Source: Psammoneis japonica
Lineage: Eukaryota
Length of the DNA: 41,896 bases
NCBI GenBank assembly: GCA_008632985.1
Contig: QPGO01000008.1
Span: forward strand, 124,001-165,896
Reading direction: 5' to 3'
In this document: positions 1 through 31,356 of the stretch, in pieces
Numbering within the stretch: position 1 is the first letter of the stretch
Layout: each line of letters opens with the position of its first letter
Notes under the pieces: model-generated
Told to the model about the DNA's origin: nothing
Database searches by the model: none
The model's input: only the letters and a program-made list of their open reading frames with translations
Position numbers and translations under genes: made by a program

Positions 1-322
1 TGAGGCGGCAGGCAAGGAGCTCGTCATGTGTGAACAAAGAGGAGTCGTTGGCAACGTCAAGACCTTTGTGTGCTTTGACAATGCACAGACTGACTGGTGC
101 TGCTAACATGTTCTCACAACCACGGGGCAAAGGGATTGCATCAGTGCCGTTGTCGCACTCAAGCGAGTCGATTTGGGACGGCATGAACGTGAACAGTTCC
201 TGACATGAGTCCGTGCCGTCTTGGGCCAAAGCCAAACGAAGAGGACTCCCAGCACCTTGGGCAAGCACGGTTCCAACCACGTGCTTGAAACCATCGGTTT
301 GTTGCTGACGAGTGAGAACCAT
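1..322 (-). CDS. N-terminus of copia gag-pol (partial, open to window edge, TpA-mutated)
   Basis: Manual translation: MVLTRQQQTDGFKHVVGTVLAQGAGSPLRLALAQDGTDSCQELFTFMPSQIDSLECDNGTDAIPLPRGCENML..., 107 codons without a stop. Resembles diatom CoDi gag N-termini (F.HV...VL....SPL..AL...IDxLxY). Not in the supplied ORF track. Confidence 0.75.
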   Translation of the reverse strand, partial: MVLTRQQQTDGFKHVVGTVLAQGAGSPLRLALAQDGTDSCQELFTFMPSQIDSLECDNGTDAIPLPRGCENMLAAPVSLCIVKAHKGLDVANDSSLFTHDELLACRL

Positions 323-900
323 GGCAGACAAAAATGGTGTCAGGACAATCAATTCTGGTTGGGAAGCGAAGGCAGACTCGAAACTTGGGTGAGAGTGGAC
401 TTGACTTGAAATGGACTTGACTTGAAATCTTGAACTATCTTAAAATCAGAAGTCGCCGGGCTTTGTTATCCCGTTCGTTGTCAAGTGCTAAACTTCCCAT
501 CCGGTCCGCCAGAGTTGTGCCGGCACGTCCGAACCCGCAGCCAGCGGCGCTTTGGGTTGCTTGCGAGCGGAGCAGCGGGTTGCAAACCCCTGCAGGCAAG
601 CTGACCAGAGGTGGACAAGACCCCCGAACCGTTCTTATTTTATGTCGGTTGGATTTCCCGATTGGGCTGGCCAGTTGACGCAGGCGCCAGGCACTGTGGA
701 CGAACGAACAAACGCGGGAAAGCACCCTCGCCCCAACGCAGGCTGCAATCACGGCTGCTTGCTCTCACAGTCATCCTCGTGGACCTAGTAGAACTGTAGA
801 GCACCAGCAGTCCGGGGTAGATCAGGTGCAATGGACTCGGTGTGCTTGTAGAGTGGTGGCAAAACCGCAGTCCGAAGAGTGGGTACAGGTTCTTGGCCGT

Positions 901-928
901 GAAGACATGTATATATATATATGTCTTC
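901..928. repeat. (AT)n-centred near-perfect palindrome in the retrotransposon leader
   Basis: GAAGACATGTATATATATATATGTCTTC. Confidence 0.85.
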
Positions 929-1250
929 AGCGACGAAGATCCTTGAATATGTAGGGTTCTTGACCGTTAACCGATGAACAGGTATATCAAGGGATGAGGA
1001 TCAAGGATAGGCTTGGATATGACCGTTGAATGTATGTCTTCAGCGATCAAAGGTAGTATAATCAATCCAGATATCCAGCGGTAAGGAGACTTGACGGTGA
1101 CGTTAACTTCCTGCCGATGCCCTGGTATTGAATGCGCGTAGACTTGCCGATGTATGTAGAATATATACGGAGGTCCACGTAGAATTAAAAATAGCGTCGT
1201 TGGTAAATCAACGACGACGATGGCGGTTGCTCAATGGGTTGACAATGAGC

Positions 1251-1263
1251 AAGACTGCTAATC
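1251..1263 (-). promoter_or_regulatory. Putative primer-binding site complementary to the tRNA-Ser(GCU) anticodon arm
   Basis: Minus strand reads GATTAGCAGTCTT directly after the LTR's terminal CA. The plus strand GACTGCTAATC equals the canonical Ser-GCU anticodon stem-loop. Confidence 0.65.
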
Positions 1264-1539
1264 TGACAGAAAATGAAGGCAAATGGCAAGAATTCAAACA
1301 ATAACTCCTTACTGCTGTCTAAATAGCAGATGAGTCTCCGCTCAGAGACCGTTACAGGAGCCGAAAGACGTGTGAGTCGGTATAATCGGGCTACTGTTAT
1401 TATTCTTGTGAGCCTTGTGGCTCGAAAGCAAACTACATCGCGCGTGAACGCGCGGAACTAAAGCACACAAAACTGTGCACGGTAAACTAAACAGCGCGCG
1501 ATACTTCGCGCGCACCTAAATCCTGTTCAAATCCTGTCA
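1264..1539 (-). repeat. 5' LTR (276 bp)
   Basis: Begins TGACAG and ends CTGTCA (6-bp terminal inverted repeat). Its outer end coincides with the junction to an older decayed element. The second LTR is outside the window. Confidence 0.7.
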
Positions 1540-3560
1540 GTGTGCTTGCAACAGCAATGCTTTGGCTTCCAAATTTGGCCGCACTTGATTTTGAGTGGCT
1601 CACAACAGCTCCCAAGCTTTGGGTCATTTCTCCTTGGTGTTCTCAAGATTCTTGCTGAGAGCTTGTTCTTGCTGCTTCAACTCAGCTGCGTGATTCAACT
1701 GGAGCTCTCTTGCTTCAACAAGCCTTTGGTGTTGAATTGAATTTCCCTGATCAATCTCCTGAACGTCTGCCACAAGGTTCTCCCATGCTTTTTTTGTTGT
1801 CCCAAGAATGATGTGCAGTGATGCAAGAAGCACCCTGTCAAAATCAACCAGAGTTGGAGGTCGGTTGATCACTGATCCATTTGTCTCAGCAGCTTGCTTC
1901 TGCTTCTTCTTGGTGTTGTGCTTTTGGATGTTGTTGAGTTGTTGCTTTGCCTCAGCTGCCATTTGCAGCTTCATTCCCAAATTCATGTGTCCTTCAATCT
2001 GAGCTGCAAAGCTCTCAGTGAAATGTTGCAGAGAAAGCAGGGAAAGAATGCACTGCAACCCTGTGAACCAAGGGCGATGTTGAGAAATTGAACATTGCCA
2101 CCAAGAACTGTGTGGAGCTCACATGTTTCAAGACTGAGTTCCTCCATGTTTTTCACATTTGACTCTTTCTCAAAAGGTGACATCCAGTGCAGCATTGCAC
2201 GCTTGTTCTTTGTTGACAAATTGAGCAGTGTCTTGTTGTGTCTTCCATGCTGAAAGAGAGTGGCTTGCAAGCACACTCAGAACACACTTTCCCTGGCACC
2301 TTGTCTGTCCTTGCAGAACCTTTGTGCAACTTTTTTGCTTTCACAAATGTTTTCATCGTGGCAACATGGTGATGTGTCATTTGTTTTCATGTGCCCTTCA
2401 CCACTTTTTGGATTTGCATCCACTTGCTTCCATGCCCACCTGTGCTTGGACTCAATTTCACTGTGCCTTTCTTGCCCGACTGCTCCTCCAGAATTTTCAT
2501 CATTTTGTGTCCCATGTGCTTGAGCACTTTGACGTTGCCTGCACTTTTGAGGTCACTGGCATCAAATGGCTGGCAACACTCCTTTGCAGTGCTGAGGATT
2601 CCTTCCGCATCTTCTTGTGGATCTTGGTCACCAGCTGTGGCATCTGTTGTGGCACGAGGGGTGACAGTTGCAGCAGTTGCTTTGAGGGCAGTGGCGGGCA
2701 TTGCTGCAAATGAAGCACTGGCAGGAGCAGGAGCATTGGGAGCAGTGACGGGAGTTGGGGCAGTGGCAGGAGCAGCAGAGTCAGGAGTGCAACTCGCAAC
2801 ACCTGTCAGCTTGTCATCCTTGAGATGGGCCAGGGCAGGCATGGGCTGAGGGAAGGGCGCGCACAATTTCTTTTCCTCCATGACCAAGGTTTTGACTTCT
2901 CAAGCTTCCTTTGTGCAACCAGCTCTGTGAGTTGCATCTGTCAGCAAATTCATGAAGGCAAGATCTTCCTTCACAATGGGAGCACTTCCTGGTGTTTCTG
3001 CAGTGTCTCCACAATCAGAGAAGTTGTGTGCCAGTGACGCCGTCACACAGTGCACATTCCCAAGCGGGAGTCGACAACATGAGTTGAAAGGACACTTGTG
3101 CTTGTCAATTTTTGAGAGCCATGCCTTCTTGCACATCCACTCAAAGTTGACCACAGAAATGCCCAACTGCCAAAAGAATGTCTTCTCTCCTTCTTCTTGA
3201 CACTTGGTGTTGGAAGCCAGCCACCATCTTTTTGCCCAGAACAAATGCATGAAGCAGGTCTGGGTCTTGCGCACAACATGCCAGTGTGCATGCAGGTGAT
3301 TTTTGATGTCTTGTTCAGTCAATGTCTCCCTTTCACTCTGCAAGTGGCAAGTGCAGCAATGTTTCAGCACAACATGTTTTGGACACATTGGTCAACAATG
3401 AGGTCAAAGCAACACATTGTCAGTTTTGATGCAAGAACACAAGCAACAACATTTTTGCCAACAAACGGCGACTTGCATTTTTTGTTCAGTTGCTTTTGCA
3501 CATTTTTTGCACTTGGCCTGTTGGAGGCAGATCTGAAATTTCATCCCAAAAAAAGAAGAA
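1540..3560 (-). pseudogene. Decayed Transib/RAG1-like (CMC-type) DDE transposase, interrupted by the copia insertion
   Basis: ORFs 3388-2900, 2887-2387 and 2380-2153 are one frame broken by TGA. Downstream motifs GGNVQFLNIALGSQGCSAFFPCFLC (D....LG.....+PC..C) and LVDFDRVLLASLHIILG (LH..LG). Confidence 0.6.
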
Positions 3561-4149
3561 AGGAGGCATTTTTCAGTGCTGCCACAGTGGAGTCTGCATG
3601 GAGATGACGTCACAGTGCAAAACACCATTTCCATGCTGCGGTGTGTGCTCTGCAAGCACGTCGTGGGCTGGGGGGTTGGGCCGGGGGCAAGAGAGTGCAG
3701 GGGGGAGCTTGCAAGCAGGGGCAGAAGGGAGGGCCAGGTGCAGGAGAGGCTTCAAAGGGGGGGGGGGGGGGGGCAAGGGACACAAGAGAGGATGGAGGAG
3801 GAGGATCAAGTGGTCAGAGGGCAGCATTGCTGCAGTGTTTGAACACCTTGGGAAGTCACTGGGGCTGGTGTGAGGTGGCTCACACATGTGCAAGCAAGTC
3901 ACTTGTGCTTCTGGCAGTGGGGCTGGGTGAGCTCCATGATGAGGAAGGGGACAGCAGAGGCAGAGGCAGCAACAGAGTGGCACCCTGTGCTGCCTGCAGA
4001 TGCTGGGAGGTGGAGGAGGAGGGGGGCATGGCAAAATGGGTTGACACTCCCCCTTCCCCTTCCAACATGATGTTCGATGCCAGCACTGAAGTGCCTTCCT
4101 GCAACACCTCACCCAGTCTGGGTTAAAGTCAAAACACATGTCTGAAACC

Positions 4150-4860
4150 AGCAGGGGCAGGATGGAGAGAAGGCAGCACAGGAGCAGCAGAGGGAGCTCT
4201 TGGTTCATGCGCCACCCCAGGTGAGAGGAAAAGCAGTCAAGGTTGGTGCAGAAGGTTGTTGCTTTCTGAGCAAGGAAGGTGTCAAGGAAGGATGCAGCTT
4301 GGCAGAGGAGGGTGGCAGCACTGACTTGAGGCGGGTTGGGTGAGGGGCTGGCACCTGTGATGGATGCAAGGATGCAAGTTTGGGAGCAGCTCAGATGGAC
4401 ACTGTGTGGCCAGTTGATGGCAAAGCAATGCTGGCAGCAGAGGGAGTCTGGAACTTCTTGGTTGCTTGAGGACAATGCTGGGGACAAGAAGGGTGGAGAA
4501 ACAGGAAGGGGGCAATGAGCAGCCTTCAGAAAAACATTCAGGCTTGGGGAAGGACTGCCAAGAACTCACAGGGTTGTGTCGCCACAAGGCATTGGGGGCA
4601 TCACAGCACAAGATGAAGATGGGGAGGAGGCACCTGAGTCAGGGGGCAAGTGCTTCTCAGCGCATGTCCCAAGAGCATTCTCACCAAAAAAATTTTGAGG
4701 TCAAGGGTGGGGTCAACACGAGCAGGAACATCTTTGTTGAGGCATCACTTGACACTGGCAAGTGCAATGTGGACAAGGCAGTTGGGGCTGCCTTTGATGC
4801 CAGCACCAAATTGTTCATCAGGGATGAGGCATTGAGTGAGGGCAGAGGTGCTGTGGCACT
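4150..4860 (-). pseudogene. Decayed non-LTR retrotransposon reverse transcriptase fragment (CRE/Ambal-like)
   Basis: Manual translation QFGAGIKGSPNCLVHIALASVK*CLNKDVPARVDPTLDLK (about 4813-4695), then SWQSFPKPECFSEGCSLPP, corresponding to the RT G..QG.PLSP motif. The YxDD segment was not found. Confidence 0.6.
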
Positions 4861-5859
4861 TGGCTGAGCCGCATTGTCAAAAAAATGTTGGGAGCACACA
4901 CAGCACATTGTGTTGTCATGCACCCTTGCTTCATGTTTCCACATCACCATTTGGAGCACTGTGTCACACCCGCTCTCCATGATGAGTCTGCACATCATCA
5001 ACAGCTTGCCACTGTGCACACTTTGCACACCTGGGTTGCAACGCAGATGATGTGCCAGGGTCACACACAGGCAGTGAGTTCAGCCACAGTGTCCAAAAAA
5101 TGACATGACCCTCTCCAAGGCAGTCAATGCAAAACACACCAGAGGCGTGCCAATCACATGATGGTTGGTTGTGTTGCCCCATCAATGCCACCACAGCCTT
5201 GTGCCACCCAACCGATGTTTTGTCAAGCTCAACACAGAAGTGTGCCATGCCCCCATTGAAGTTGTTTCACTCAATTTTGTCCAAGAGTGAATGAGTGCCA
5301 AATTTTCACTTTGTCAGTCATCACCAACACACACACACACCCTTGAGCATCATGTGGTTGTGCGTTCTGCTCATTTCACCTCATGAGTTGCAACAATGTG
5401 GAAACACAGTGTGTGTCTCTTTTTGTTGCTTCCTTGCAGCTTCATTGTCTTTCTTGCAGCTGAGCTGCCACTTTGGCATCAGTTGCAATGAAAACTTTTG
5501 GGCATTTGCAAGAAATGCACTCATGCTCAAACTCTGCTTTTGCTCCTTGCTGCACAGGTTTTCAGCTCAAACAATGTGGCAGCACTGCTTGTTTGTGACT
5601 GCTCAGGATGTGGCTGAACTGCGGTGCTCTGAGATTCAAAACCAACGTGCAGGAGCCCAGCCAGGTTCTCATTTTTGTTGGGCATCATTTTTTGTGTTTT
5701 TCCAAGATTTTGAGATCAGGTGGCATGCACGTGCCCATTTTTGTGTGAACAATGAGATTCTTTTGAAAATGACCCGTGACACAAAACGCATGAATTGCTT
5801 TGGGATGTCCTCAGAATCTGCACCTTTTTGCACCAAAATTGTTGTCTTCTCAAAACTTG

Positions 5860-5963
5860 TGCAAAAAAGCACTTGACTGCTGCCAGATCAGGTGCATTTC
5901 TGCAAACAGCTGTGTTGTTCTAAAGTGCACCTGACCAGTTTGCAGTCAAGTCCATTTTTTGCA
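5860..5963. repeat. Imperfect inverted repeat / hairpin
   Basis: TGCAAAAAAGCACTTGACTGC..TCAGGTGCATTT pairs with AAAGTGCACCTGA..GCAGTCAAGTCCATTTTTTGCA. Confidence 0.75.
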
Positions 5964-6489
5964 GAATTGACAATTCAATGTTTTTCTTGGTGCAGATCCA
6001 CGCAGTTTCTGCACATTTGCCAACAACAACTCCACAGCTTGAAAGATTGCCATTGACGAAAATTTTGTGATGCATTCATTGCAATGGGGATGGCTGGCAT
6101 CACTCTGCAGAAATTTCTTTGTTGATTTTTTCTGCAGCTGCTGGCTGGCAGCATGACGGGGCAAAAAATTTGCGTTGCTGCCATGTGCTGGCAAGGGGTG
6201 GTGGGACAATGCCGCTGCAATTTTCCAGCTAAAAAAACAAACAAATCTGCAGTGCAACAACCAATGCACAAAATCACATGGCATTGCTCCTCCTCCTGCC
6301 ATGATGTGACCAACTCATTTGCAGGTGAAGCATGGCAAAATGAGCGCATTGCTGCACATGTTGGGCAACTGTTTGGATGTGCTCCATTGCAAAAGATGTG
6401 CAAACCTGCAATGTGATGTGTTCTTGGCTGCATGCTTGATTTGAACATTGTCAAAGTGTTGTTGTGTCCTGCCACATTTTGGCTCTTGC

Positions 6490-9137
6490 ACGCACGGAGC
6501 ATCAAACACATGAGCAACACAACCGTCAACCCTCCTTGGCTTGTCAAATTCTGGCAGTGCAATGTCACTCAGAGCCACCCAGTGACCCGACTGGAAAGGA
6601 CCTGCTGCGGTTTGAAAAGCTCACACTCCACATTCATCAACGGATGGTGTGGCCCCACGAGGTAAAACTCGAGAAGATGTCACAGTGTGAGAGCCACCAG
6701 AATCAAATGGTGCACTCATCACACAATTCAACTCATGACATTGGATTGATTTGGCAACCAGCAGCGCAGATGGGACCAGCGTGGCATGCGAAACTTGCAA
6801 ACCCATTGTGGGGAGAGGAGTGTTGTGTTCAAATGCATCTTGATTGAATGCACCCCCCTCTTCATTCATGCAATTTTCTGCAGCATCTTCAAATTCAACA
6901 GGCAACAATTCATCAGGATTTTCAAAACAATCAAAGGCAAAACTTTCAGGCACATTTTCAGGCATGGCACAATCATTTTCAACAAGTGCTTCACATGCAG
7001 GCAATTGAGATCATTCAGCTCCAGAGCACTGAGCTTCTTCTTCTCAGAACTGCCAAGAAAACTGCCCATCTGGCTGAAACCTCACCACACCTCCACAACG
7101 TGGAGGGCCTCATCCGACCATGTCTGAATGGTGCACATCACCACAAGGAGCTTCTCAAGCCTGGTTGTTGTTCACATGTTGTCTGCTTGAGCAGCACAAC
7201 CATCGGCCTGACCTTGACCACCACAGTTGTTGTCATCATTGCAACTGTGCTGGCCACCACCTTGGTTGCCATTGTTGTTCTGATTTCCATTGTTGTTGTT
7301 GTCACAATTGTTGCAACAGGTGCCATGACCTCCTTGGTTTTGGTTGCCATGACCACCAAAGTGTCCACCACCATCACGGCCAGGACCCTGGCCTCCTCAG
7401 AAGCGACCTCTGCCTCAACCTCCACTGCCACGACCACCACCTCAACCACCACAGATTTGAGGTCCACGACAGTCAGGGTCATTTGGATCATCACAGCACT
7501 GGCCCCATGTGTGTCTTCAATGATGCCACAGAACCGGGCATGGATCACTGGCCTTGGGTTGACCCTTGTTGGCCTTCTTGTCTCAGTTGCCTTTCTTGTC
7601 ACTGGAGTTCCCTCCATTGCTGTTGTTGGACTTGCATTTCTTGCTGTCTTGACCATCAGCAAACACTTTCTTGGTGCTCACATGCAGGCTTGAATGTCCG
7701 CCATGGAATCTGCAACAAGGCTCTTGCCCACACGAATTGGGGCTGCTGCCAGGTGAAGGGAAAGGTGCGGAAGACAATGTTTTTCTGCTCCTGCTCTGTG
7801 AGTTCAGGAACAGTTCCAGGCAAGCAGTTGGCACAACCAAATGAAGTTTCCGTGCGATCAACGTGAGTTTCAGATTCTGCCAAGTGAGGTTTTTTGCAAC
7901 AAGGCAAATGAATCTTCACGGCATGTCACGAGCTGTTGGCTTCACATGGTGTGAACAGCAGGCCGCAACAGCTTGATTAAACCGAGCCACCATCCTCTGA
8001 TTCTGTTGGATGCCCGCCATGATGTTCTGCCGTTTTGCCTCTGCAGCACCTTGCAGGCGATCCTCAAAAGCATCAAAGAGTTCCAGACGCTTTCCAGCTC
8101 TGGGTGGGACCTCGTGCTGCTGAACTGTGGCACAATTGTTTTTTGTCATCCGTTGCATGTTTCGCATGTGCATTTCTGCGTGTTCTGTTATAAAATCATG
8201 TTCCACACTGCCTGTTTTGCAAAGCCAAAGGCTTTCTGTTGTCCACATCATTTGTGACAACAAAAATGCGCTGGGCATGTTCTTTGATGTCTGAAGAACA
8301 CACCCGGGTGCACTGAAAAGAATGCACTTCAAGTGTGGGGGAGAAGATGCATTCGCAAAATTGCCTCTTTTTCTGTTGGCGATCATTCACACATCCATTG
8401 CTTGACAATTTTGCTGCGGAGCTCGCACGTGGACGGGCCCAATGTCACAAAAAGTCCCACCTGGGACTGGAGCCCGTCTCCATTCTGATGGCGCCACAGC
8501 CCAGCCGTCTTGCCACCTTCCAAAAACGGTCCTCCATGTGCAACAGCGATTCAACTCCATGTTCTCCTGTGAAAATGGGACACATTTTTGAGAGAGTTTG
8601 GTTCCATCATCAAAGGTTTGAGTGAGCTTCACTTTTTGCAATTCAGAGTCCACAAATTTGGTTTCACGCTCAATGCGCACTTTCTCCAAACCTTCTTGAT
8701 GCATGATGATGAACAACCTCAGCAATCAAAGAATCAACAATCCACAAAACAAGTGAAACAAGGTGTTCCCAATTGGTCCACACAAGAACAAGAACAATCA
8801 ACAGCCAAACAACAACAAATTCGAGTGTGGCAACACAAGCTTCAAGTTCAAACAAGCACTGCTCCAAATCGCCAATTTCACAAGTGCAGCTGGGCTGAGG
8901 TTCCGATTGACCTCCAATGAAATTTTCTGCACACGAGCACACAGACAACATTTCTCTCTTTTCAACAGCACTCTGCGCGTTGTCATGAAACAGATGACAC
9001 AATGAACAATGAGCAAGCCATGACAACGACTGCAGTTGCAGTGCAAGATCTGGCTTGAGATGACTTGACAAAACAGGTTGTGAGAGAACCAAGAAGGGAA
9101 CCGATCAGCGCAGTCGCTGATCAAAACTGACTTCTAA
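6490..9137 (-). mobile_element. Truncated Ty3/Gypsy LTR retrotransposon (gag plus aspartic protease), decayed
   Basis: gag from ATG 8704 (MHQEGLEKVRIERETKF...), LPGTVPELTEQEQKNIVFRTFP, CP...HTWGQC knuckle and RGG/N-rich tail. Protease FDSGGSHT at about 6700 and LPEFDK..VDGCVAHVFDAPC at about 6560-6495, after which homology stops. Confidence 0.75.
8086..8478. mobile_element. 393-bp MITE with about 25-bp imperfect TIRs and a 4-bp TSD, inserted in the Gypsy gag
   Basis: TCCA|GACGCTTTCCAGCTCTGGGTGGGAC ... GTCCCACCTGGGACTGGAGCCCGTC|TCCA. Removing it restores the gag frame (GAIRM-ELFDAFEDRLQG). Confidence 0.8.
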
Positions 9138-9660: not shown

Positions 9661-11172
9661 TTGAGTGGGCGTGCCAGAGTTTTCGGCCTGTTCACTTTCT
9701 ACGTGGCCTGGTGCAACCCAAATCTGTGTAGATTCAGCACATTTCGCCCTGCAGAACAGTTTTTGGGAGTGTTTTCTGGCTCGCGGCTCAAAATGACACG
9801 CAAAACAACACGGACAATGGCGTTTCACCGATTTGAAAAATGCGATCGTCTCTGAGGTTGGAACCTGTGTGCTCTCAACAGAATCTGGTGCATCACATCA
9901 TAAGACACGAGACAAGCTTGAGAATGCCCAGGTTCACATGGGTGGATCATGGTGTAATTTTGACCTGAAGATTGGTGTTGATGCCGCCGCTTTTGTTGCA
10001 TCAACACGCAACTCATGCATCGTCATTCATGCTGTGCATTTCGTTGAGCACTCATGCGTTCAAATTCTTTCAACTTACATGTGTGTTGTCTTTCCTCATT
10101 GTTGTTTTGTTCTGCAGGGTCTCCCTTGCCATGAGCCATCCCTGAGAGAGAAATGCTTGCTTTGAATGTCACTTCTGCCTTGCAACGGCCACGGCAGTCT
10201 GACGACAAGTCCACGTCACAGACACAGCATCAGGATGACTCAACGACAAACAAAGAAGCTTGGGTCTGTGGTGTCTGAAGATGTTCAAGCTCTCAACAGC
10301 TCAGATTTGTCGTCGAGCAATTTTGCCGCGCATTTGACGTGCATCCAGAAGGTGATGCGGAGTTTTGTTCGACAGAGAAACGCACCGCGGCAATTGTGAA
10401 GGGGTGGATTGTTTCTTTGTTCTACAAGGCAGTTTACAAACTGGAAATGTGTGACTCACTTGCCTGCATTGTCAGCCAATGCAATGAATTTTGAGGGTGA
10501 AAGCTGGTGCACCGTGCACAAACAGCGAACCAAGCCTCAAAAGCACAGCAGGCCAGAAGCTGGAGAGTTTGCGCCAACAGGAAGAACTGGCTTTGCTGTT
10601 TGTCATGGGACAGTAGATTTTATTTCATTGGGGTGACAAGTCTCCATTGCTGTTCTAGAGTGACTGGCATTGGTTTGGCCGTTGCAGCCTTCATGCATGC
10701 CCGCCTCTTGACAATCTGTTTTGTTCTGAGATTGTGCAATGAAAAAGCCTTTGTTTGCAACATTCCATCACAAGAGAGAGCTTATGAGCTTTACTTGGCC
10801 CTTTGAAGTGATCAGGCAAGTGAAAGAGGAGCCAACAGAAAGACACTAACGACGACAACGAACGACGCCATTTTGATGCACTGTCGTCTGGTGGTACAGT
10901 GTCGTTGATGGAGTGCCGTGCTTTCTGTTTTGTACTGCTTCTGTGTAGGAATGTACGTGCTTGGCAGAGCGATCGATCGAGGGCACACTCGGTCATAGAG
11001 TACATGTGCCTATCTCATTCAAGATCTTGCATCTTCTCTGGAGTTTCAAGGGGCATATATAATTCCTAAGCTTCTGGTCAATTATAGTGACCCCAATGAC
11101 TTCGGAGGGGTCACATTTTGGAGGGAAAGCGCAGGCGACATCTTGACTCGATTTTAACGATCAAGTCACAAC

Positions 11173-14028
11173 ATGGCGAGTAGTTCAGAGTCAGACACAC
11201 TGAGAGTGATGACCCCGTCTCCAATACGTCGACGAAGCTTCCTTTTTGTCGTGTTTGTGTCAATATCATCGGCGAAAGATAGCAGTTCCTGCATTGCTAA
11301 ATACGGGAGCAATGAGCTCTTGTGTAGCGAAACGTCTTCAGAATGCAAATTTGCAGTTAACCTGGGTGGCGAGAGCTGTGCTGGATTTTGTGAAAAACAT
11401 GGAGGGCGATGCATCACTGCTGAATCGGGTGGAAGCACAAGTTGCAAGAGCTGGGGAACGAATTCTTGTTCTAGTGGATATAATGACAATATCTGCATCT
11501 GCTCACTTGAAGGTGTCCAGGTAATCGAACAACCTATTGAAGTAGCGACAGCAACCACTCTACCGTCATGTATCGAGCAGTATGGCACAAATGACTTACT
11601 ATGCGACGAAACGCCACAGAATTGTGCCCTGTCTGTTATTTTGAAGGGACGAACTTGTAGTGACTTCTGCAGAAAACATGGAGGAACATGTATTGAAGCG
11701 CGGGCGGTATCAGGTGGTTCCTGCAGAGTATATGGAACGAATTCATGCAATACGCCTTATGGCGACAACTACTGCGTCTGCACAAGAAGTAGATTTCCAT
11801 CAGCAACGCCCATGCGGCCGTCAATAAGTCCACCGACCAAGAAACAAACTTCAATGTCTTTATCTACAACGTCACCAACGCAATCTCCGTCCGCTCGACC
11901 AACAAAGCTAACCACCAAGAAGCCTACCTCTGAACCAACACCTTTCCCGACAAAAATACCGACCCAAAGGCCATCTAGGCCCCCAACAAAAGCCCCGACA
12001 GCATCTCCGTCCAAAAGCCCGACACGATCTCCGTCGATTGGACCAACAAAGCAGCCTACCGCTGGTCCAACAGCAACTCTGACTGATATGCCAACACAAA
12101 AGCCAACGCCATCCCCGACGTCTAGGCCGACGATGTGGCCTACCACACCACCATCCCCTTCTCCGACTGATTCACCGACGTCTTTCCCTACTCAAGTCCC
12201 TACGGAGCTTCCAACAAGCATGTTAACTGATTCTCCATCTTCTCTGCCAACGCAGAGACCCACTCCTACTCCGACGCTATCACCTACATCTTCACCCTTG
12301 AGCCCATACCCAACCAAGGCCCCAACAATCTCACCAACCCCAGCTGTTCGTGGGGTTCATTCCACCAATTCTACAACTTTAACTCAATACGATGCAGCGA
12401 TTTGTGGAAAGTGTTTTCGCAATGGGTGTTTCGATGAAGTTACATCGATAAATGAGCAGAAATGCGGAAAGTTTGAGTGTGCCACGAGGTAAGTCTGGAT
12501 TCTTATTTTCCGAGCCCCCGAAGAATACCCTGTTTTATCTATTTAGATTCTCTGTCAACGTTTCGTCAGGATAACCTGTCCTCGCTATCAGTCAGAGTTA
12601 GCATTAAGCGACAAAAGAACAAGCCCACCACAAAGGGCAAACATGCCAGGCAGTGCTAAGACGGCAACACCAACCGCATCTCCGACCCCCATCCTACGCG
12701 GAACTGGCCTTGAATGCAGCCAAGACAAGGATTGTGAGTCAAACACATGTCGAAACGGTGCGTGTATGGCGTCCCCAGATTGCTATCCAGTCAAGCACGA
12801 CTACGGAACGATGTTCGGCAAGAATACGATCAATCTGGTATTTGTTGCTTCGGGATTTGACACGGCTGATCACGATATTTGGATATCCCAAGTGAGGAAG
12901 ACCTATGACTACATGAAAGGCTACGAAATGTTTGCTGAGCAGAATAAGGAGCTGAACGTTTTTCTTGTAGACCCGCCTCAACTGAATCCTTCGTTCTGTG
13001 CAATGAATTGTGCGGGGATCGAACGAATGTTGTGTTGCAGTGCTTTTCAGGCACAGCGACTCTCGAGCAAGTGTTTACCAGATGGAGCTAATCTTCAAAC
13101 GATCGTGATTCATCATGTTGATCAGTATGGAGGAGCAGGCTACACCGAAGAGAACATGGCAACCATGTCAACACATCCACTAGGTCCAGAGATCATGGTT
13201 CATGAGTTAGGTCACTCTTTATTTGAATTGGCTGATGAGTACTCGTACGGGTCTGGAACAGAGCTGGACCCCAACTGTGCGGCAACCAGTGACTGCTCGA
13301 AATGGGCTGACCTTATTGGACGTAAAATCGAAGGCTACAATCAAGTGTCCTGCAGTCCCGGTTGTAGCGACGATGGATACTACGTGGGCGAGCAATCTTA
13401 CATGAGCGTCTTGACCAAGGATGTCGGGGCTGTGAATACTCGATACACTTGTTGTACCTATCTTGCATTGACGAAAAAGTTCCCTTCATACTGTCAAGCC
13501 TTTGATTTCGAGCCAGACTACTTGATAAACTTCTGCGAGAGCAACGATTACCAGAATTATGGCAAATCCAATTACAACGAGAAACCAAAGCTCTCCATTA
13601 GTACCGGAAAGGCGTTCAAGGACAAATCCAAGTACATGTACGTGTCAGAGCCTCTGTTGGTGGATGTGCGCCTGAATCACAAGAAGGGGCGCGCCGTTGT
13701 GGCAAGCATGCCTGTGTCGGGAGCACCTGGTTTGTACCGAAAGAAACGGGTGATAGGAGACTACAAACGAACTTCTCAGGCCAAGGCAGCTGGGCTTGAT
13801 TCGGTGGTAATGGTAAAGGTGACGTATCGCCAAGGCACCCAGCGATTCTTTCTGTCCACGAACACCACCATCGAGGTTCCCTCACACGCATCCGTTGAGG
13901 ATTCGGTGGAGGCGAGGGGAAGAGAACGAACAGCTGTGTCAGAGCAAGCCGAAGTAGTCAATCTTGTTCTTGACGCCAAAGGGCGATCTTTCATGAAAAT
14001 TCAAGCCAAGTATGTGCACATATTATGA
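11173..14028 (+). CDS. Secreted M64-family (IgA peptidase-like) zinc metallopeptidase with two 10-Cys modules and a P/T/S-rich stalk; join(11173..12488,12570..14028), about 924 aa
   Basis: Hydrophobic N-terminal segment. A GT..AG intron joins the two ORFs in frame (CATR|ITCP). Motifs NLVFVASGF, YGGAG and HELGHSLFELADEY. The start could be the second Met. Confidence 0.85.
12489..12569 (+). other. Spliceosomal intron (81 bp)
   Basis: AG|GTAAGT ... TTTCGTCAG|G; removal fuses ORFs 11173 and 12643 in frame. Confidence 0.85.
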
Positions 14029-14859
14029 TCCGAATCATCCTCTTTCATCTCAAGTGCTCTCTAGCTAGCTAGATCTGCTCTATCACTGCTTGTTAACCTT
14101 GGAATTTACTGCCAGTGTGATCATCGTGTCCATTAAACTTTGGCCACTCAGCGTTTCTACCAAGATCGCCAAACGAGAGGAAGACAAAAGAAGACGGACA
14201 AGTTTTGCGGCCCGCAACGTAGGGATGAAGTTTCAGTTTCAGAATTCATTCATTTCGGTTTTAATCTTGCATCTTTCAATCATTCGTTATTCAGTACTTC
14301 GTTCCAGCTTATTCCTACGAATCCCTCGCTCTGACGGCGGGAATATCGTTGATCAACCGGATGGCTTTGGCATTCAGCATTGGCATTCGTTGCGTCGTGC
14401 TCTTTTCAAGCTGAGATCATGATATTTCGCGTTCGATCTTGATCATTTAAAAGTCGTGTGCGAGAAGCGAATACGGTTTTCCATTGATACCCGCCATTGT
14501 AAAACCGAAAATGCATAGGCCTCTTCTTGGCCTCTGCCATCGTAGTTGTTGCAAATTCACTCAAAGCTCAAAGGAAAACATCAGCACATCAAAAATAAAA
14601 CGAAGCCGCAGCATCGCTCCCGCGCGCCAGCGTGCGCATCAAACAGCTTTGCCCAATGGTGCATTCCTACGGTACGTTCAAATTTGGAGATTTTGCTGTG
14701 ATCATGAGTCGTCTCGCGAGCTGGCCGGCCTTCATTCATTATTTGAGTTCAATAGGAATCTGAATCATTCGGGTCCTGAGAGTCAGCACGTAGAAATTGT
14801 GTTGGAGAGTACTAAAAATAATTATTATCAGTCTGTCCATCCGTCCATATACGAATGTC

Positions 14860-14971
14860 AACTTCTCGGGAAATCAATTGAAATGCCATCTGATTGACGG
14901 TGTTTTGATTCACATGGTGAAGGCCAATGCCGTCAATCAGATAGCATTTCAATTCAGGTTCCCGAAAAGTT
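14860..14971. repeat. About 41-bp imperfect inverted repeat with a 29-nt spacer at the left edge of a transposon block
   Basis: AACTTCTCGGGAAATCAATTGAAATGCCATCTGATTGACGG / CCGTCAATCAGATAGCATTTCAATTCAGGTTCCCGAAAAGTT. Confidence 0.85.
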
Positions 14972-15074
14972 ATTAGCTCTAATCACTCTCTCGTGTGACA
15001 TTGTGTACATTTCTACTCGATTTTGTGTTTTTCCTTGTGTGAAATGTCAATTGTGACCCACGCGACATTTTCAA

Positions 15075-18000
15075 ATGATTCCTGTTGCTCCGAATGAGAA
15101 TCTTGTGTCGACACACCACGCGTTTTTGCCGTGCTTTGAGTTTTTTCGTCTCCCGCCAACAGAGATGATGTTGCACTCATCAAGGCGGTGTCTTGGTGCC
15201 TCAGTGAAATCGTCAAATGATGCGGGGCAATGCTCTTCACCCGCCAACGAAACTGCTGTTGCATTTGTTGATGATTCTGCTGAAAAATGGGACCATGACA
15301 GCTGCCAGAGAAACTTGGTCAGTTTCTTTTGTTGTTGCCGTGATGCACCGGCGTGGTGGCATGAAGTCATTTTGCGACCCAATTCCAAGTCTGACTCAGG
15401 TGTCTCCCATGTCTTTCAAGTTTGCGCTTGGCTTGTCTGACAGCTCCTGTGAAAAGCTTTTGACGAACAGTGGTTTGTTGAAGGTGAGCGCGGCTTTGAC
15501 CAAGGAAATTGACAGAAAAGCATGGGGCACATTCAAGGTGTTATTTGACGTTGACATTGAACTCAACAGGGTCTCCTTGAGACAGAGAGACCATCAAGTG
15601 TGGGTCATCAGGGTCGGATCTTTTGTTCCTTGGGCCGAAAAATGTCCTGTGTGTCAGGCCAGGTCGACACGCAAATGGAAAATTTGCAAAAGGCTTCACG
15701 GCGAAGCTTCAGGCCAACAAAGTGTGCAGCAGGAAGCTGCAACAGAAACAACTCGGGATTGCCAAGGTGCAAGAGGAGCTTGCTTGCACCCACATTGTGC
15801 TGAATGAAAATGAGCCCACTCATGAGAAACAAAAGACTGTTGATGACAAGGCAGCCTCTGGGTCCACGGCACCTGATGAATCGCCAACCAGCACATTGTG
15901 TGACATCACTCAATGACAAACAAACATTGACAACAGCATTGACAATGAGTTGGAACCTTGTGCTGGATGGAAAATGTCAGGAAAAGACAACACCATTGTT
16001 TCAGTGTCTGTGAAAGAATGGGTGCAGAGCAGCTCCATGCCCCATGCTGTTGCAGTCGGAGACACCACACCAATTGCCTCTTGCTTTCATTCGATTGAAG
16101 GTGCCAAGGATTTGTGTCTCTTGGTTGATTTGGACAATGGACACAACCCACGGCCAAAATCATGCAGCTGCTGGAAGCCTGAGTCCGTCAAATTGCAGCT
16201 GTGCACCCCCTTCTCTGATGCGCGATTGACTGTGTCTCGCATTTGGCAACAATGCAAGAGGGCCATGTCAAAGGAAGTGTCTTCAAAAAAGTGTCTCAAA
16301 CCTGATCACTTGGACATTGTCCCAAGTGAGGTTGCACATGGCAGCATTCAGCAGCTGTGGACCAACCTCAGCAACTCTAAGAAATGGGAGCATCGGCTGC
16401 GAGAACGAATGGTGGTGATGAAGAATTGGTCACTCAAATGTGACGGGCAGCTTGATGGCACTCTCCCTGCCCAAAGAAAAGATGCGTCAATCCTGAAGAC
16501 CATCGTGCATCATGCAGAGCCAGTTGCAGCAGAAATGTGTGGCAAAGACTCCGCTGAACACCATGCCTTCACCATGCACTTGCAGTTCTTAAATGGAGAG
16601 CTCACGGATTCAAAGGGAAACCATGTTAGAACAATGCAGTGCTCCACCCTGATCAATTTCCATGCACTTGCTGCACTTTGTGATTGCAGAAAGGATGTTC
16701 ACAACACTTTGTCAAAGGTGTCGTGCCTTCCAGATTGATGGAATGTTGAACGTTTTGCCAAGGACAAGTTTGGAAATGAACGAGACAATGGCGTGCTGAA
16801 TGGGAACGTTGATGCTCTTGCTGTGGAGATGCAAAAGGCAGGCTGTGCCAAAGCTGCAATTGCTTTTGACAGCATGACCATGTGGAAGGGAAGGATTCTT
16901 GACAACCAAGAAGATTGCAAAGATGAGCTCTCACAGGTGCAATGATGCCGGAGCAGCTTTCCGTTGCAAAGTTGGAGTTTGAAGCACATGTCTGGAATCT
17001 AGCTGATGGAGTCAAAGGCAGCAATTTGGATGAAACTGTGTCATTGTTAAAGCTCAAGAACTCAGAACATTCTGTTGAGTCTGAAAGTTGAGGCGAAAGT
17101 CATGACAGCATGCTGCAATGCAAAGACCTTGACAGCTGCAGATGTGTGTGCCCAGTTGGATGAATCGAACATGGCACTGAAGCATCACGGTTTGTCCGCT
17201 GCTTTGGAGGTGTCCGATTCAGCAGAAGCAAATGATGCAGCAGCAAACACAAGGTGTGAAGCATCCGCCAAAGAAATGCTCCCACGGGATCTTTTGAAAG
17301 CACACAGCTTGGATGGGAACTTCCTCATCACACACAAGGATGTGGTCATGAAAGATTGCGTGGTGTGCACAAATGACATGCCACATGTTTTGAAACAAAT
17401 GGGGAGTGCAATGGACTCATGAGAACTGGCTTGTGGCTGACTTCAACTTCATCCAATGTCAGTGCCTGTTTTGGGAGATGTGCACAGCAGTCTTGCTGGT
17501 GGCAGATTTGGTCTGCAGGTGCACAAGAAGTGGCCCCCCACATGATTTTCAAAAGCAGAGCAACCGTGACAAAATGAAAGTGAAAAGAGCAGCAAAAATG
17601 CCAAGTGGCAGCATGGTCAAATGCATTGACAAAGTGCGCAACTGAGCTGAAATGGAATTGGCAGGATTGTCAGCAAGAATGGCAGAGGAGAGGAAGGCAT
17701 TCTGCGGACCCATCTGCAGCCATGTCTTCACCATGAATTGTTGGTTTGATGCTGGCAACTCTTGTGACACAAAAGGCAAGCACAATTTCTTGGTTTGTGT
17801 GACTCGGGCCAATGCAAGAAGCACTCAAGATGTGTTCTTAGAGTTGCTTGTCACACGTGAAGATTGGATGTGAAACTTGACAAACAACAAGGGAGAGTTC
17901 GACAAAGAGAGATTCACACCCATGGAGCTGATGGCCAGCATGCAAAGGGTGTTTTGTGGCTTTGCAGCTCTTGTCCAAAAGATTGTTGTGGAAGAGAATG

Positions 18001-18230
18001 GGGTGCTTCTCTTGCGTGACTTAAACCAAGACATTTGTGAGCACCATTTTGCTCACACACAAGCTTCTTGCAGTTGGCACAACAATCCCGACCAATCCGG
18101 TGCCATCTTTTCTGATTTTGCATCTACAGCCAAACAAGTTTGTGCAATGTCTGACCACACCAATGTGTCTAAAAGTGCAAGGGAGCACTTCAATTGCAAG
18201 TTGTCAGCACAAGCGCAGTTCTGGTTGCTG
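15075..18230 (+). pseudogene. Decayed P-element/THAP9-like transposase
   Basis: Ordered motifs IAFDSM (~16860), SDSAEAN (~17215), NDMPHVLK (~17375), DKMKVKRAAK (~17570) and RDLNQDICEHHF (~18015-18050) match the P-type FDEM / D...N / D.PH..K / KMKV..A / LNQD..E..F pattern. Broken by TGA stops and frameshifts. Confidence 0.75.
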
Positions 18231-18420
18231 CGCTGCATTGTTTGCTCCTGCACACGTTCGTCGTTCGGACGATTTTTGATGTGAAAGATCAAGCTGTCCA
18301 ACCCCGGTGGCAATGATGCTCTCTCCTTGCAACAATGCATTTAGCTCCATTTTGGCTGTGTTGCTGTTGCTTTCTCCTGGACAAATGATTTTGACCAGCT
18401 GCATCTTTCGGACGACAATT

Positions 18421-19710
18421 TCACAAAATCTGAAGCACATCCCACCCTTTGAGTCTGCGGCACCACAGCAGAACAAAGTCATCCAACCCCAACAGCAACA
18501 CCGCTCTCTCTTCAGTGTTGAGTCTGGGTGGAGAGCAGCACTCAAAATGACCACACACATGAATGCTGTTGTTGACGACCATTTCAATCTTTGAGAGCAA
18601 TCGAGCTTTGTGCTGAGGTGCTTGAGCAGAGTTGAAGTTGGTCATCTGTGGGTCACACACCAAGGCCACAAACTCACAGCATTTGTTGTTGGAACATTGC
18701 AGCGCTGCTCCTTTTACATGATCTCTTTCCTCAACAAGGTGCAAATCATGTGCTGCCTCATCCTCGGCTGCTTCACTGCTGACGGCATTGTGGTTGACAA
18801 ACTTGTGCCACGCACTCGACTCAAATTTCCGAGCTGCAGTTTTTGACAACTTGTGGGCATGCACCCTCATCTTTGACAACCCCCAACCTGCAACACAAGC
18901 TGCAAGACTGGTGTCCTTTTCTTCTTCTTGGATTTTCGAGACAGCGTCCTTTGTCAGATGATCCGTCATTGGGGCTTCATTGGCTCCCCACAGCTTCTTT
19001 TCCCACACCCCTTGCAGTTTCTGATGAAAGTCACAAATCATTGCATTGCTGGCTGGCCCAGGTGCTGTCCCAGAGAAGCATTGGATGCAGTTCAAAAAGT
19101 GCCCATGTTGCTCCATCTGTGTGAAGTGCTGCATGCCCAGGATTTTCTTGTCAATCTTGGAAGGAGTGCTCCCTTCAAGGCACAATGCCAGAGCATTGTT
19201 GAACTCGGTGATTTCATCAGTTGCATGGTCTCTGGCAATTTTGTCATGTGTTGGCAGCTCTTCAAAGGATTTGCACTCATCACTGCCAACAAAAACATTT
19301 TGTGTTGTCCAGTCGGCGGCGAATGTGTCAATGGCATCATCTGAAACTTCTGGCTTTTTTTCTCTGCATCCAACCTCGCATCAAACATCTCGAGCAACTC
19401 TGCTTTTTTACACTCCAAGGCTGGAGGAGGATCATGGATGCCTTTTGACTTCCTAAATGACAACCAGCATTGAGCTGCATGACTTTGGTTGCTTTTGGGC
19501 AAACCCAGCTGGCGCAAATGCTCATCAAACAGAGTGTCCTTTCCCTTTCTGGTCTCCAATGTCCAGTGTTGACACAGGTTGAAAAGAGACTTGCAAGTCC
19601 ATCCCTGAGGTGCTTGTGATGCTTGTCACTTCCTTCACCCTGATGAATCACCTGTGACTGCTGCCTCCTTTCTTGAAACTCCAGCAATTGGGTCGTGCCA
19701 CGGCCCAATC
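18421..19710 (-). pseudogene. Decayed ORF of unknown function, convergent with the P-like transposase
   Basis: Overlapping protein-like ORFs 19559-19092 and 19185-18421 linked by an apparent frameshift; same TpA-free composition. Confidence 0.45.
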
Positions 19711-20350
19711 TTTCTTCGCCAAATGAATCATCCTGGGCATGGCAGTGTCAGCTGCTGACATCATTGTGAGTGGCAAATGACTCTGGATCAACAACACTTG
19801 AATCGACAAACAACAGGGCAGCGTGGTGTTTTTGTTTGTGCAATCTTATTGCTGGTCGAGGGGAAGTTGCAATCTTGTTGCTGGTCGAGGGGAAATGCCT
19901 CGAGCACGACACTGTGCGTGCCTTTTTTTGAAGTCTGTGCGTCACACACGCGTGATCACAGTACCGGTACAGCACAATCGCCAACGAAGTCTGTCCGTGC
20001 CTCACCTGGTCCGGAGGAATGCACCATTGCTTTTTGCCTCGCGCTCGAACCATTTTCGATTTGACATTGCGTGTGTCGGAGGGAATTTGGCCAATTTCGA
20101 AATTTCAAATAGGACTACAGTACTGTATAATAATTGCGGTCATTCACGAATTATTCTGCATGACCAGACATTTCCGACAATCGCAAAGCAAAATGACTAT
20201 GTCCAATGAATCCTTGCTCACACAACATTTAGGCCCAAGACTTCATGATGATTCGCATCGTTTAGCGGTCCATTGGTTTACGCAGTCCTCAAGCGTTTTA
20301 CATCTTTTTCCAGATATAGTGACTCGTCGTAACAGAGAAAAAGCGTATCC

Positions 20351-25191: not shown

Positions 25192-25290
25192 GAAGCGTCA
25201 GGTTGGTTGTACTCTTTTTTCCTAAGATCGCAATAAGAATATTACAGCACTGGTTGCGTCTAAAACGATATGCCGTTCGTATTGAGATAA

Positions 25291-25510
25291 GCTAGCTCCT
25301 CTAGAGTAGTAGCAGGCAAGTGGCAGCAGAAGTAGGGCCAGGTAGAAAATGCTCTCTACTCTACTGTAGCTTTAACTCTAGCTAGCTCTCTACTCTAGAA
25401 TAGATGCTCTCTACTAGCTAGCTACTAGCTACTTCTAGCTACTCGTAGCTACTAGCTACTTCTAGCTACTCGTAGCTAGCTAGCTAGAGAGTAGAGAGTA
25501 GAGTAGAGGG
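25291..25510. repeat. CTAG/CTAC/GTAG low-complexity intergenic tract
   Basis: Dense TAGC/TAC/TAG units, including a 27-bp unit twice (25419, 25446). Confidence 0.9.
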
Positions 25511-25698
25511 CACTAACAGCAGTTCAGACCCAACGCGCGTGAATGAATCATCATCGCATTTGCGACACGCGTGACTCACTATCGTCACTCACGTCAACTC
25601 AACACATGCGACCGTATGAAATAGTAAGTGAGCATAACAGTACATTACTGTCGCAAACGAGATAACCTTGATTGAAAGCAGATAGACCTGAAAGAGAC

Positions 25699-26964: not shown

Positions 26965-27451
26965 AACGGGAACAAGGTTCCTTGGATGCGTAAACGTGAC
27001 AAAAACACAACCTCCTACAAAATACCTCCATACGATACTGGAACATGTTCATACGGTCCGATCCCGCGCCTATAAGTATCTGTCCTCTCCTGCGGTATGC
27101 TAGTTACTAAAGAGTAGTTTCAACCTTACTCCTATGCTATGTTCCCAAAGGATTAGTGTCGATTGCAATGCTATCGCCACCTACAACACCAGCTCAAGCT
27201 GAGGACCCATCAGGACGAACAACGGAGTGTCCTTCCTGTCTGTGTTGTACGTCTGTCTGTAAAGGACTGACTCACTCATTATTTGGTTATGAGTTATTTG
27301 GACCAATGACGTCAGACTGCGAATAGCCGTTATGCGTTGTGTCAAAATTCTTCTGCTTTTTTTTTTGTCGAATACCGACCATGTCGAGCATAGCATGCAA
27401 ACATACCGTTGATACTTAGGCTACAGTAGTAGGTAAAGGTTGTAGTTGACC

Positions 27452-30673: not shown

Positions 30674-30837
30674 AAGCCGTGCGTGGTCACAATATATGTC
30701 GGACTTGCATAATTTGGGATCTGTGACAAACTTTGTAACGTATATGTTCTTTTCTAAAACGTACCGCTGTGTTTCGCTTTGCTGTGATGTTTAATAGTAC
30801 GGTAGGTCCAAAATTGCCTATTTTTGCTGAGTGAAGC

Positions 30838-30955
30838 AGTCTCTAGTCTAGCTAGCTCTACTCTCTAGAGAGTAGTACCGGTAGCTACTAGAGCTAAGGT
30901 AGCTAGTAGAGAGTGGAGTAGCAGAGAGTTAGTAGGGCCTCTAGCTACTTCTACT
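30838..30955. repeat. CTAG/CTAC/GTAG low-complexity intergenic tract
   Basis: CTCTAGTCTAGCTAGCTCTACTCTCTAGAGAGTAGTACCGGTAGCTACTAGAG... Confidence 0.85.
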
Positions 30956-31356
30956 TGTATCTCTGCACACCCACCACAGCCAACAAGGCATGTCACGCAA
31001 CAAAAGTGCCGGTGGTTGCTGTGGCTGGCCAAATTTTAATAACGCCCGGGTACACTAAAAGTCATACAGAATTTTCAACGGACTTATTTTTGAAAATTCG
31101 TTAATTACCAAAAATTATTATTAATTATCATGCTTATACTTGAAGATATATGAAACTTCGCATTCTAGAAGAAGAAGAAACGCAAAAAGTCGAAAAAGAT
31201 TCGTGTGAATGGAGGGAAGTGAAACGATGTGTGTGCTACGCAAAAAAGATACGAGCAACTCGCATCTTCTTTTGCCTTCTGCGACCATACAACTCGTCAC
31301 TCTTCTTCCGTTGCGAAGAGAGCGTTTGCGGACTAAGGCAAGCGCAGTCCTTTGCC

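Follow-up and report, generated by a model that had tools for sequence, protein, structure and literature searches.

Introduction

A hypermutation that strikes a single dinucleotide, TpA, has so far been known from one preprint on one alga, the chlorarachniophyte Bigelowiella natans (B. natans). According to the available text of that preprint, mutation in two integrated viral regions of mutation-accumulation lines runs about 1000 times as fast as elsewhere in the genome, and 230 of the 231 new mutations in these regions are A>G or T>C, all 230 at TpA (10.64898/2026.01.13.699255). The rate at TpA is about 6e-7 per site per generation, compared with 3.9e-9 for G/C>A/T in the same regions, and the hypermutation occurred in some lines only (10.64898/2026.01.13.699255). 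The B. natans genome holds 124 clusters of 1-kb windows that are depleted of TpA and enriched in CpA+TpG, its TpA-poor genes show an excess of reverse-transcriptase and DDE domains, and the authors (Mettrop et al.) propose that adenine in DNA is deaminated by an ADAT2-like enzyme, for which they name a candidate (10.64898/2026.01.13.699255). Here we analyze a stretch of 41,896 nucleotides from Psammoneis japonica (assembly GCA_008632985.1, contig QPGO01000008.1, positions 124,001 to 165,896 of the forward strand; hereafter the window), the first 322 bases of which are, by sequence similarity, the 5' end of the gag-pol open reading frame (ORF) in one copy of a very abundant Ty1/copia long terminal repeat (LTR) retrotransposon.

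We find that the internal part of this copy (1–436) was very probably hit by TpA-specific A:T-to-G:C hypermutation, a description that stands apart from the enzyme responsible. Of the 41 1-kb windows in our stretch, 16 satisfy the 5% cut-offs given in the B. natans preprint (10.64898/2026.01.13.699255). The kind of phenomenon has already been described once, in B. natans; new here are another lineage and another target. The available preprint text mentions neither CpG nor diatoms nor retrotransposons (10.64898/2026.01.13.699255), and the relation of TpA loss to CpG decay is therefore also new here. A literature search on TpA loss, or on mutation resembling repeat-induced point mutation (RIP), whether in diatoms or retrotransposons returned only this preprint.

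Results

TpA and CpG at the start of the window

We compared the window with its siblings, that is, with contigs from the one public sample in which the stretch occurs (it may be the assembly's own source). The left end of the window is laid out as follows.

1–322, minus strand: first 107 codons of the Ty1/copia gag-pol ORF (ATG at 322–320; the ORF exits the window at its left end; 0 Tyr, 5 Cys)
323–436, minus strand: putative 5' leader of the copia element, within the TpA-free tract 105–436
437–515, minus strand: putative leader with a primer-binding-site-like stretch (about 495–511, starting with TGG on the minus strand), read from the sequence; TpA is kept from 436/437 on
516–1539, minus strand: LTR-like part of about 1 kb, starting with TG on the minus strand at 1539; highest sibling depth

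Bases 1–322 contain 18 CpG (observed-to-expected ratio, o/e, 0.78) and a single TpA (o/e 0.06), with TG and CA at o/e 1.61 and 1.56; an initial annotation of this DNA, made from the sequence alone, had given about 18 and one, and both counts are exact. At the TpA frequency of the host genes in the window, 13.1 TpA would be expected in this piece (Poisson P(≤1) = 3e-5), and at that of the adjoining LTR-like part 17.7 (P(≤1) = 4e-7). CpG is not depleted on either baseline (18 vs 18.9 or 21.5 expected, respectively), and the signature of methyl-CpG decay, which is present in blocks B–E further along the window (58–84% of CpG lost), is absent from 1–322. Over 1–436, 94% of the expected TpA and 24% of the expected CpG are missing, the run 105–436 being entirely free of TpA; over 437–1539 we counted 59 TpA and 75 CpG, and neither is depleted. 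Losses and surpluses, here and in the blocks below, are reckoned against the host genes of the window.

Siblings and relatives retain TpA and Tyr

Site differences between the window copy and its siblings were taken from the best-supported 40 of 1968, and the counts of converted sites rest on these 40. Among the 21 best-supported differences in 1–1517, 15 are TA vs TG/CA, four are CG vs TG/CA (some of them within compound sites) and two are of other kinds. T stands at base 84 in 72% of sibling depth, so that the codon is TAC (Tyr) and not, as in the window, TGC (the Cys of SLCIV); T likewise stands at base 117 in 83%, for TAT (Tyr) vs TGT (the Cys of RGCE). Base 138 is A in 51% of sibling depth, so that GTA (Val) stands opposite the GCA (Ala) of the window, and bases 95/96 read TA or CA in siblings and TG in the window, which on the sense strand is CTA/CTG (Leu) vs CCA (Pro) (51% at base 96). 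At bases 204–206 the minus strand reads TCA TGT in the window and TCG CAT in most siblings, and the fewest-step ancestor of both is TCG TAT.

The protein alignment, with 99 relatives, has Tyr in 75 of 95 relatives in the column of the LECD Cys; of the 95 in the column of the LACR Cys, 80 have Phe and 13 Tyr. Overall, 87 polyproteins average 3.7% Tyr and 0.9% Cys, compared with no Tyr and five Cys per 107 residues in the window piece. The initial annotation had described an open frame with the motifs LECD, RGCE and LACR, and this frame of 107 minus-strand codons is indeed there. It had also taken the three Cys for former Tyr codons: this stands for LECD (Tyr in 75 of 95) and RGCE (TAT at 83% of depth), but finds no support for LACR (Phe in 80 of 95). 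Two Cys that it did not name, those of SLCIV and DSCQ, derive from Tyr as well. The outcome that it had set against its own idea, siblings likewise without TpA and with Cys/His, is at odds with siblings and relatives that mostly have TpA and Tyr.

TpA and Tyr stand in siblings and relatives at places where CpA/TpG and Cys stand in the window, so the loss of TpA is a derived state. In this one copy, the sense-strand changes are A>G at the codons with bases 84, 117 and 204/205, and T>C at those with 138 and 95/96; the presence of both directions in one copy excludes single-strand editing. Two other accounts of the composition were considered and rejected: a TpA-poor composition as a family trait, because siblings and relatives keep TpA and Tyr, and selection against UpA in the element RNA, because conserved Tyr codons were lost.

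A dispersed, very high-copy family and uneven conversion within one copy

The copia family is dispersed and present in very high copy number: 9640 contigs matched at a likeness of at least 80%, and summed contig depth over 1–2001 is 9.9e4–1.3e5, compared with 64–92 in single-copy bins. The listed sibling contigs differ from the window stretch by about 5%. It is plausible that the copy at 1–322 is young, as judged from the high-copy family and the roughly 5% sibling difference, two proxies standing in for LTR dating. The open frame is a weak sign of youth because a frame without TpA can be stopped by TGA only; two further minus-strand frames across 1–322 are also open (78 and 91 codons). Private or minority letters of the window copy at 334, 1011 and 1187 favour a real single copy.

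Among the known TpA sites of the window copy, five are converted and one is kept in 1–436, compared with four converted and 58 kept in 437–1539 (Fisher P = 7e-5). Siblings are converted at 30–65% of depth at bases 437, 467, 787, 789 and 797. Conversion looks tract-wise rather than clock-like: an internal part converted and an LTR-like part spared in one copy speak for tract-wise bursts and not for a steady fast clock.

The window opens within the very high-copy repeat, a common position for a contig end. Another repeat of very high copy number occupies 8005–8671 (summed depth 44081, TpA-free, CpG o/e 0.56). At other places in the genome, contigs connect about 8085 with about 575 and about 8427 with about 1263, and these joins place the 8005–8671 repeat inside or beside copia LTR copies at other loci.

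Identity and layout of the copia element

Pfam returned no match to the 146-residue gag ORF. Among 1.8 billion representative proteins searched, the gag piece had 12 relatives, every one aligned from residue 1; a separate search for longer relatives of the 107-residue piece itself returned none. Through one relative, P0051, we obtained 87 longer relatives of about 1900 residues, 69 of which carry PF07727 (RVT_2). A profile made from the first 140 residues of these 87 polyproteins, with the window sequence left out, matches ORF 2–439 (minus strand) at E = 1.1e-19 and has no match among the other 328 of the 329 window ORFs. The label of copia gag, assigned in the initial annotation, is thus confirmed by a profile of the N-termini of RVT_2-type polyproteins. 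Metagenome scans, one by protein and one by an exact 28-base stretch, gave no match.

A sibling contig spans 279–541 in the contig comparison, which indicates that the juxtaposition of leader and gag is a family trait. Contig breakpoints lie at about 510 (508–511) and about 1539; depth in the LTR-like part is about 1.1–1.3e5, a single-copy contig begins at 1513 and loose contig ends lie at 1539. We infer that 516–1539 is an LTR, in which case the second LTR and the target-site duplication would lie beyond the window, as does the pol part of the element. The stretch 511–495 is a candidate primer-binding site, and a search for tRNA genes in the window found none. The LTR-like part also contains a 15+15 palindrome with a perfect centre around an (AT)n run (900–929) and a 17-base direct repeat whose units are 113 bases apart (within 917–1046).

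TpA-depleted blocks across the window

Blocks nearly without TpA make up about 45% of the window. Together with the host genes that serve as internal control, they are as follows.

1540–9135, no strand assigned: block B, putative relic; 98% of TpA and 73% of CpG lost; 2002–5336 single-copy (depth 72–91)
9136–10900, no strand assigned: block B2; 72% of TpA and 31% of CpG lost; sibling depth raised (2189–6700)
15015–19850, no strand assigned: block C, between two host protease genes; 93% of TpA and 58% of CpG lost
20300–36400, plus strand: host genes, internal control (subtilase, DUF1995 protein, two long repeat proteins); TpA o/e 0.67, CpG o/e 0.94
36500–38500, no strand assigned: block D; 91% of TpA and 84% of CpG lost
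40001–41896, plus strand: block E, holding an aminotransferase-class-III-like ORF; 82% of TpA and 77% of CpG lost

The blocks have sharp edges and take in the copia element, repeats in high copy number, a gene family with many copies elsewhere and relics beyond recognition. The claim that older neighbours from 1540 on had lost both dinucleotides proved right, with seven TpA (o/e 0.01) and 113 CpG (o/e 0.25) in 1518–9135. This stretch includes the longest TpA-free run (2607 bases), and its two strands together have 395 TGA vs 11 TAA+TAG; such TGA may have come from CGA, as the initial annotation suggested. Over 1518–9135, 15015–19850, 36500–38500 and 40001–41896, TpA o/e is 0.01–0.11 and CpG o/e 0.15–0.39, with TG and CA about equally enriched (both 1.66–1.96); the host genes (11000–15000, 20300–36400) have TpA o/e 0.60–0.67 and CpG o/e 0.92–0.94.

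Block by block, the surplus of TG+CA compared with the sum of missing TpA and missing CpG is 20.8/21.8, 614/626, 84/86, 352/349, 158/169 and 149/145. This mass balance agrees within 1–6%, and its holding in every block indicates that TpA and CpG were both lost by transitions to TG/CA. AA (o/e 1.14–1.28) and AT (o/e 0.80–0.92) are not depleted in blocks B–E, and on this ground GC-biased gene conversion and the WA bias of polymerase eta were rejected.

Pfam, run on 146 ORFs of at least 70 residues from all depleted blocks, found no transposon or viral domain; the sole matches were the aminotransferase-like ORF and three weak, sub-threshold ones. PDB sequence searches with two block B ORFs returned nothing meaningful. 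Several minus-strand ORFs of block B (1627–3391) look protein-like; their richness in Cys and His is what converted Tyr would leave, and they may be the relic of an unknown transposon gene. In the TpA-free blocks no frame is without long ORFs, which in block B reach 330 codons.

An aminotransferase-like ORF in block E

The ORF of block E (39901–41487, plus strand) is open over 528 codons and aminotransferase-class-III-like, with the Met common to its relatives near 40060. Compared with 13 relatives, all three of its conserved Tyr columns are altered (Y140C, Y185C, Y199H), and TpA conversion accounts for seven of its 27 departures from conserved columns, CpG conversion for two. Changes at invariant Trp and Leu residues as well make it probably a pseudogene. 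Members of the family number 119 at 90% identity in another genome, on many contigs that reach 3 Mb, and such multiplicity suggests that the family is probably cargo of an unrecognised mobile element. A scan of viral contigs with the family found no relative. The family also has a conserved C-terminal extension.

Relation between TpA loss and CpG loss

Over the blocks, TpA loss, at 72 to 98%, is close to saturation throughout; CpG loss, at 24 to 84%, varies more than threefold and is lowest in high-copy stretches. In bins of 300 bases, TpA o/e below 0.3 with CpG o/e of at least 0.6 occurs in 14 of 139, and CpG o/e below 0.3 with TpA o/e of at least 0.3 in none of the 139. Among 22 TpA-depleted bins (20 kb compared), higher CpG o/e goes with greater sibling depth (Spearman 0.68, nominal P = 6e-4), where sibling depth is a proxy for youth and adjacent bins are not independent; the seven bins at depth above 2000 have mean CpG o/e 0.58 and TpA o/e 0.13, and the 12 bins at depth of at most 300 have 0.29 and 0.03, respectively.

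The initial annotation had argued that TpA loss is no by-product of CpG decay, and these proxies bear it out, 1–436 having lost 94% of TpA vs 24% of CpG. Its proposed order of events, fast TpA conversion followed by slower CpG decay, holds in so far as TpA loss runs ahead (14 vs 0 of 139 bins), but not as a strict clock, because the loss ratio varies. Nor do the two losses simply scale together, which it had named as contrary evidence: the ratio is about 10:1 in 1–436, but falls to about 1.2:1 in block E.

Host genes between the blocks

The host ORFs are nearly intron-free, running uninterrupted for 430 to 1526 codons. The genome of B. natans is intron-rich, and this scarcity does not fit it. 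The Atlas cluster nearest to the DUF1995 protein has mostly diatom members, and a look-up of the subtilase returned no useful taxon. On these grounds the host is probably an ochrophyte and most likely a diatom; were it B. natans, the hypermutation would be a second sighting of the known case with the CpG comparison added. The subtilase domain is split over two overlapping ORFs in different frames near 21520 (20333–25191, plus strand), as one short intron or a frameshift would cause; no other break of this kind was seen in about 16 kb of host coding sequence. The long host ORFs (1223, 1075 and 1526 codons; 22955–24986 and 28418–35020) contain internal tandem and dispersed repeats of about 0.5–1.5 kb at 65–91% identity, and two adjacent genes share a 1.3-kb segment at 81%.

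Discussion

In the explanation that we propose, TpA would be changed to TpG or CpA, with both strands of one copy struck and CpG left at its expected level, and in the copia copy Tyr codons would have become Cys, a Val codon Ala and a Leu codon Pro. Elsewhere in the window, about 19 kb of further relics of mobile elements would have been stripped of 72–98% of their TpA by the same process. A slower decay of CpG to TpG/CpA, independent of the first, would be superimposed on these relics; the simplest account of it is that 5-methylcytosine was deaminated in repeats that had been silenced. The target would be chromosomal DNA, not RNA, and the action tract-wise or episodic on repeated or foreign DNA, with adjoining host genes spared. 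Guidance by something beyond mere repetition would also be needed, because the LTR-like part of the window copy was spared. As to chemistry, adenine deamination at 5'-TpA-3' by a TadA/ADAT2-type deaminase is suggested by analogy, and we give it slightly less than even credence.

Several observations weigh against this explanation. Every sibling datum comes from contigs of one sample, perhaps the assembly's own source, and a chimeric contig end in a high-copy repeat retains a small residual probability. The LTR-like part of the window copy is hardly converted, though siblings are converted there, and a purely repeat-triggered process is thereby made unlikely. CpG loss nearly matches TpA loss in blocks D (84% vs 91%) and E (77% vs 82%), and despite these near-equal losses the block E ORF is still open for 528 codons; together, these facts indicate that the ratio of TpA to CpG rates is not fixed and that "TpA first" is no strict clock. 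Finally, related element families elsewhere have no excess of Tyr>Cys/His changes (0 of 130, 2 of 280 and 0 of 163 minority residues) in a tally of predicted proteins only, which favour intact copies. Either the process is not general among the relatives, or it is hidden by this bias toward intact ORFs.

The chemistry could be of another kind. Thymine oxidised at TpA by a TET/JBP-type enzyme (to 5-hydroxymethyl- or 5-formyl-uracil) would pair with G and give T>C, and as TpA is self-complementary, its trace in the sequence would be identical to that of adenine deamination; TG and CA are about equally enriched, which fits. Modified thymine favours TpA in some protists. We consider this route unlikely all the same, the only study of the phenomenon proposing adenine deamination in its available text (10.64898/2026.01.13.699255). 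A single dual-specificity deaminase, acting on A at TpA and on C at CpG, would make both losses two arms of one defence. Both are confined to the same blocks and end in TG/CA, no bin has lost CpG and kept TpA, and amphioxus ADAT2 edits both A and C in DNA (cited in the available text of 10.64898/2026.01.13.699255). But the loss ratio ranges from about 10:1 (1–436) to about 1.2:1 (block E), CpG is at expectation in 1–322, and TpA was the site of 230 of the 231 new mutations in hypermutable B. natans regions, as far as the available text reports (10.64898/2026.01.13.699255), so that one enzyme for both losses seems distinctly unlikely. Editing could also have acted on RNA, with A>I at UpA in element transcripts that were then reverse-transcribed into new insertions. 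The element is a retrotransposon, and ADAR-type enzymes favour U before the edited A, according to the same available text (10.64898/2026.01.13.699255); nevertheless, A>G and T>C both occur on the sense strand of one copy, blocks without reverse-transcriptase signal and the aminotransferase-like gene were converted too, and single-copy integrated viral DNA of B. natans is described there as mutating in place (10.64898/2026.01.13.699255). RNA editing is accordingly given very little credence.

The remaining alternatives dispense with a mutagenic system altogether. If a slow, context-dependent bias of mutation or repair in silent chromatin were at work and the blocks were merely old, the single-copy relics should be the most depleted, and they are; yet 1–436 lost 94% of its expected TpA at only about 5% difference from the listed siblings, the composition switches abruptly at 436/437 inside one element, and AA and AT are not depleted, all of which leaves such a bias highly unlikely. 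An artefact, whether miscalled modified bases at TpA or a chimeric contig end in a collapsed repeat, gains some colour from the start of the window in a very high-copy repeat, typical of a contig end. It is nonetheless the reading to which we attach the smallest probability of all: separately assembled contigs match the TpA-free single-copy block with 0–2 differences over 770–2269 bases (in a run that may be the assembly's source), the same data contain copies in the TA, the TG and the CA state, and the conserved Tyr>Cys/His changes fit real mutation.

Were TpA hypermutation to hold up, its wider meaning would be as follows. Possibly, though we rate it as doubtful, it is an old genome defence common to SAR lineages (Rhizaria, stramenopiles) and here the first and main inactivator of retrotransposons, acting on chromosomal copies in tracts to which RNA or chromatin guides it, before and independently of cytosine methylation, and erasing every TpA, hence every Tyr, TAA and TAG codon, over kilobases. 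The full signature in this window would widen both the host range and the targets, the copia family standing at roughly thousand-fold depth, and the stages, which form a natural series from TpA loss with CpG intact to loss of both, set the process apart from methyl-CpG decay. There are also practical consequences. TpA-free relics escape protein-family searches (0 of 146 block ORFs with a transposon domain); they give long spurious ORFs, stopped by TGA only, which gene callers will over-predict; and they can mislead annotation and divergence-based dating of transposons.

Comparison with known systems

Methyl-CpG decay of transposons accounts for the loss of CpG to TpG/CpA in blocks B–E, but cannot remove TpA, and 1–322 has its CpG intact and its TpA gone. 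Transposons of diatoms are CpG-methylated. APOBEC3/ADAR hyper-editing in animals is alike in being a deaminase-type defence with transitions in a preferred dinucleotide context; it differs in acting on one cDNA strand or on RNA and leaving strand-asymmetric marks, where here both directions occur in one copy. One-strand editing of the ADAR/APOBEC type was rejected, A>G and T>C both being present on the sense strand of the copia copy and of the block E ORF.

Fungal RIP shares with our window transitions confined to repeated DNA, sharp edges, action on both strands and inactivated coding sequence. In the available source text, however, RIP converts C:G to T:A, mostly at CpA, and creates TpA, whereas here TpA is destroyed and CpA/TpG are created, and the LTR-like repeat of the window copy was spared. 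RIP was rejected because its direction is opposite: TpA o/e is 0.01–0.11 and CpA/TpG o/e 1.7–1.95 in the blocks. RIP would have its mirror image in a defence that uses A:T-to-G:C transitions to destroy a single dinucleotide.

The B. natans system is the closest, as far as the available preprint text describes it. In both, the hypermutation strikes TpA alone, on either strand, giving TpG and CpA; TpA depletion is coupled to CpA+TpG enrichment in kilobase clusters; foreign or mobile DNA is targeted and the rest of the genome spared; and the action is uneven, reaching some lines there and part of one copy here. The differences lie in how the process is seen, directly as new mutations in B. natans and through its traces in the sequence here, and in host and target, a chlorarachniophyte with giant-virus and virophage insertions as opposed to a high-copy copia retrotransposon and other relics. 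The outcome also differs in extent: the B. natans region keeps 3.3% TpA, compared with about zero along runs that reach 2.6 kb in our window, where the older blocks add CpG changes.

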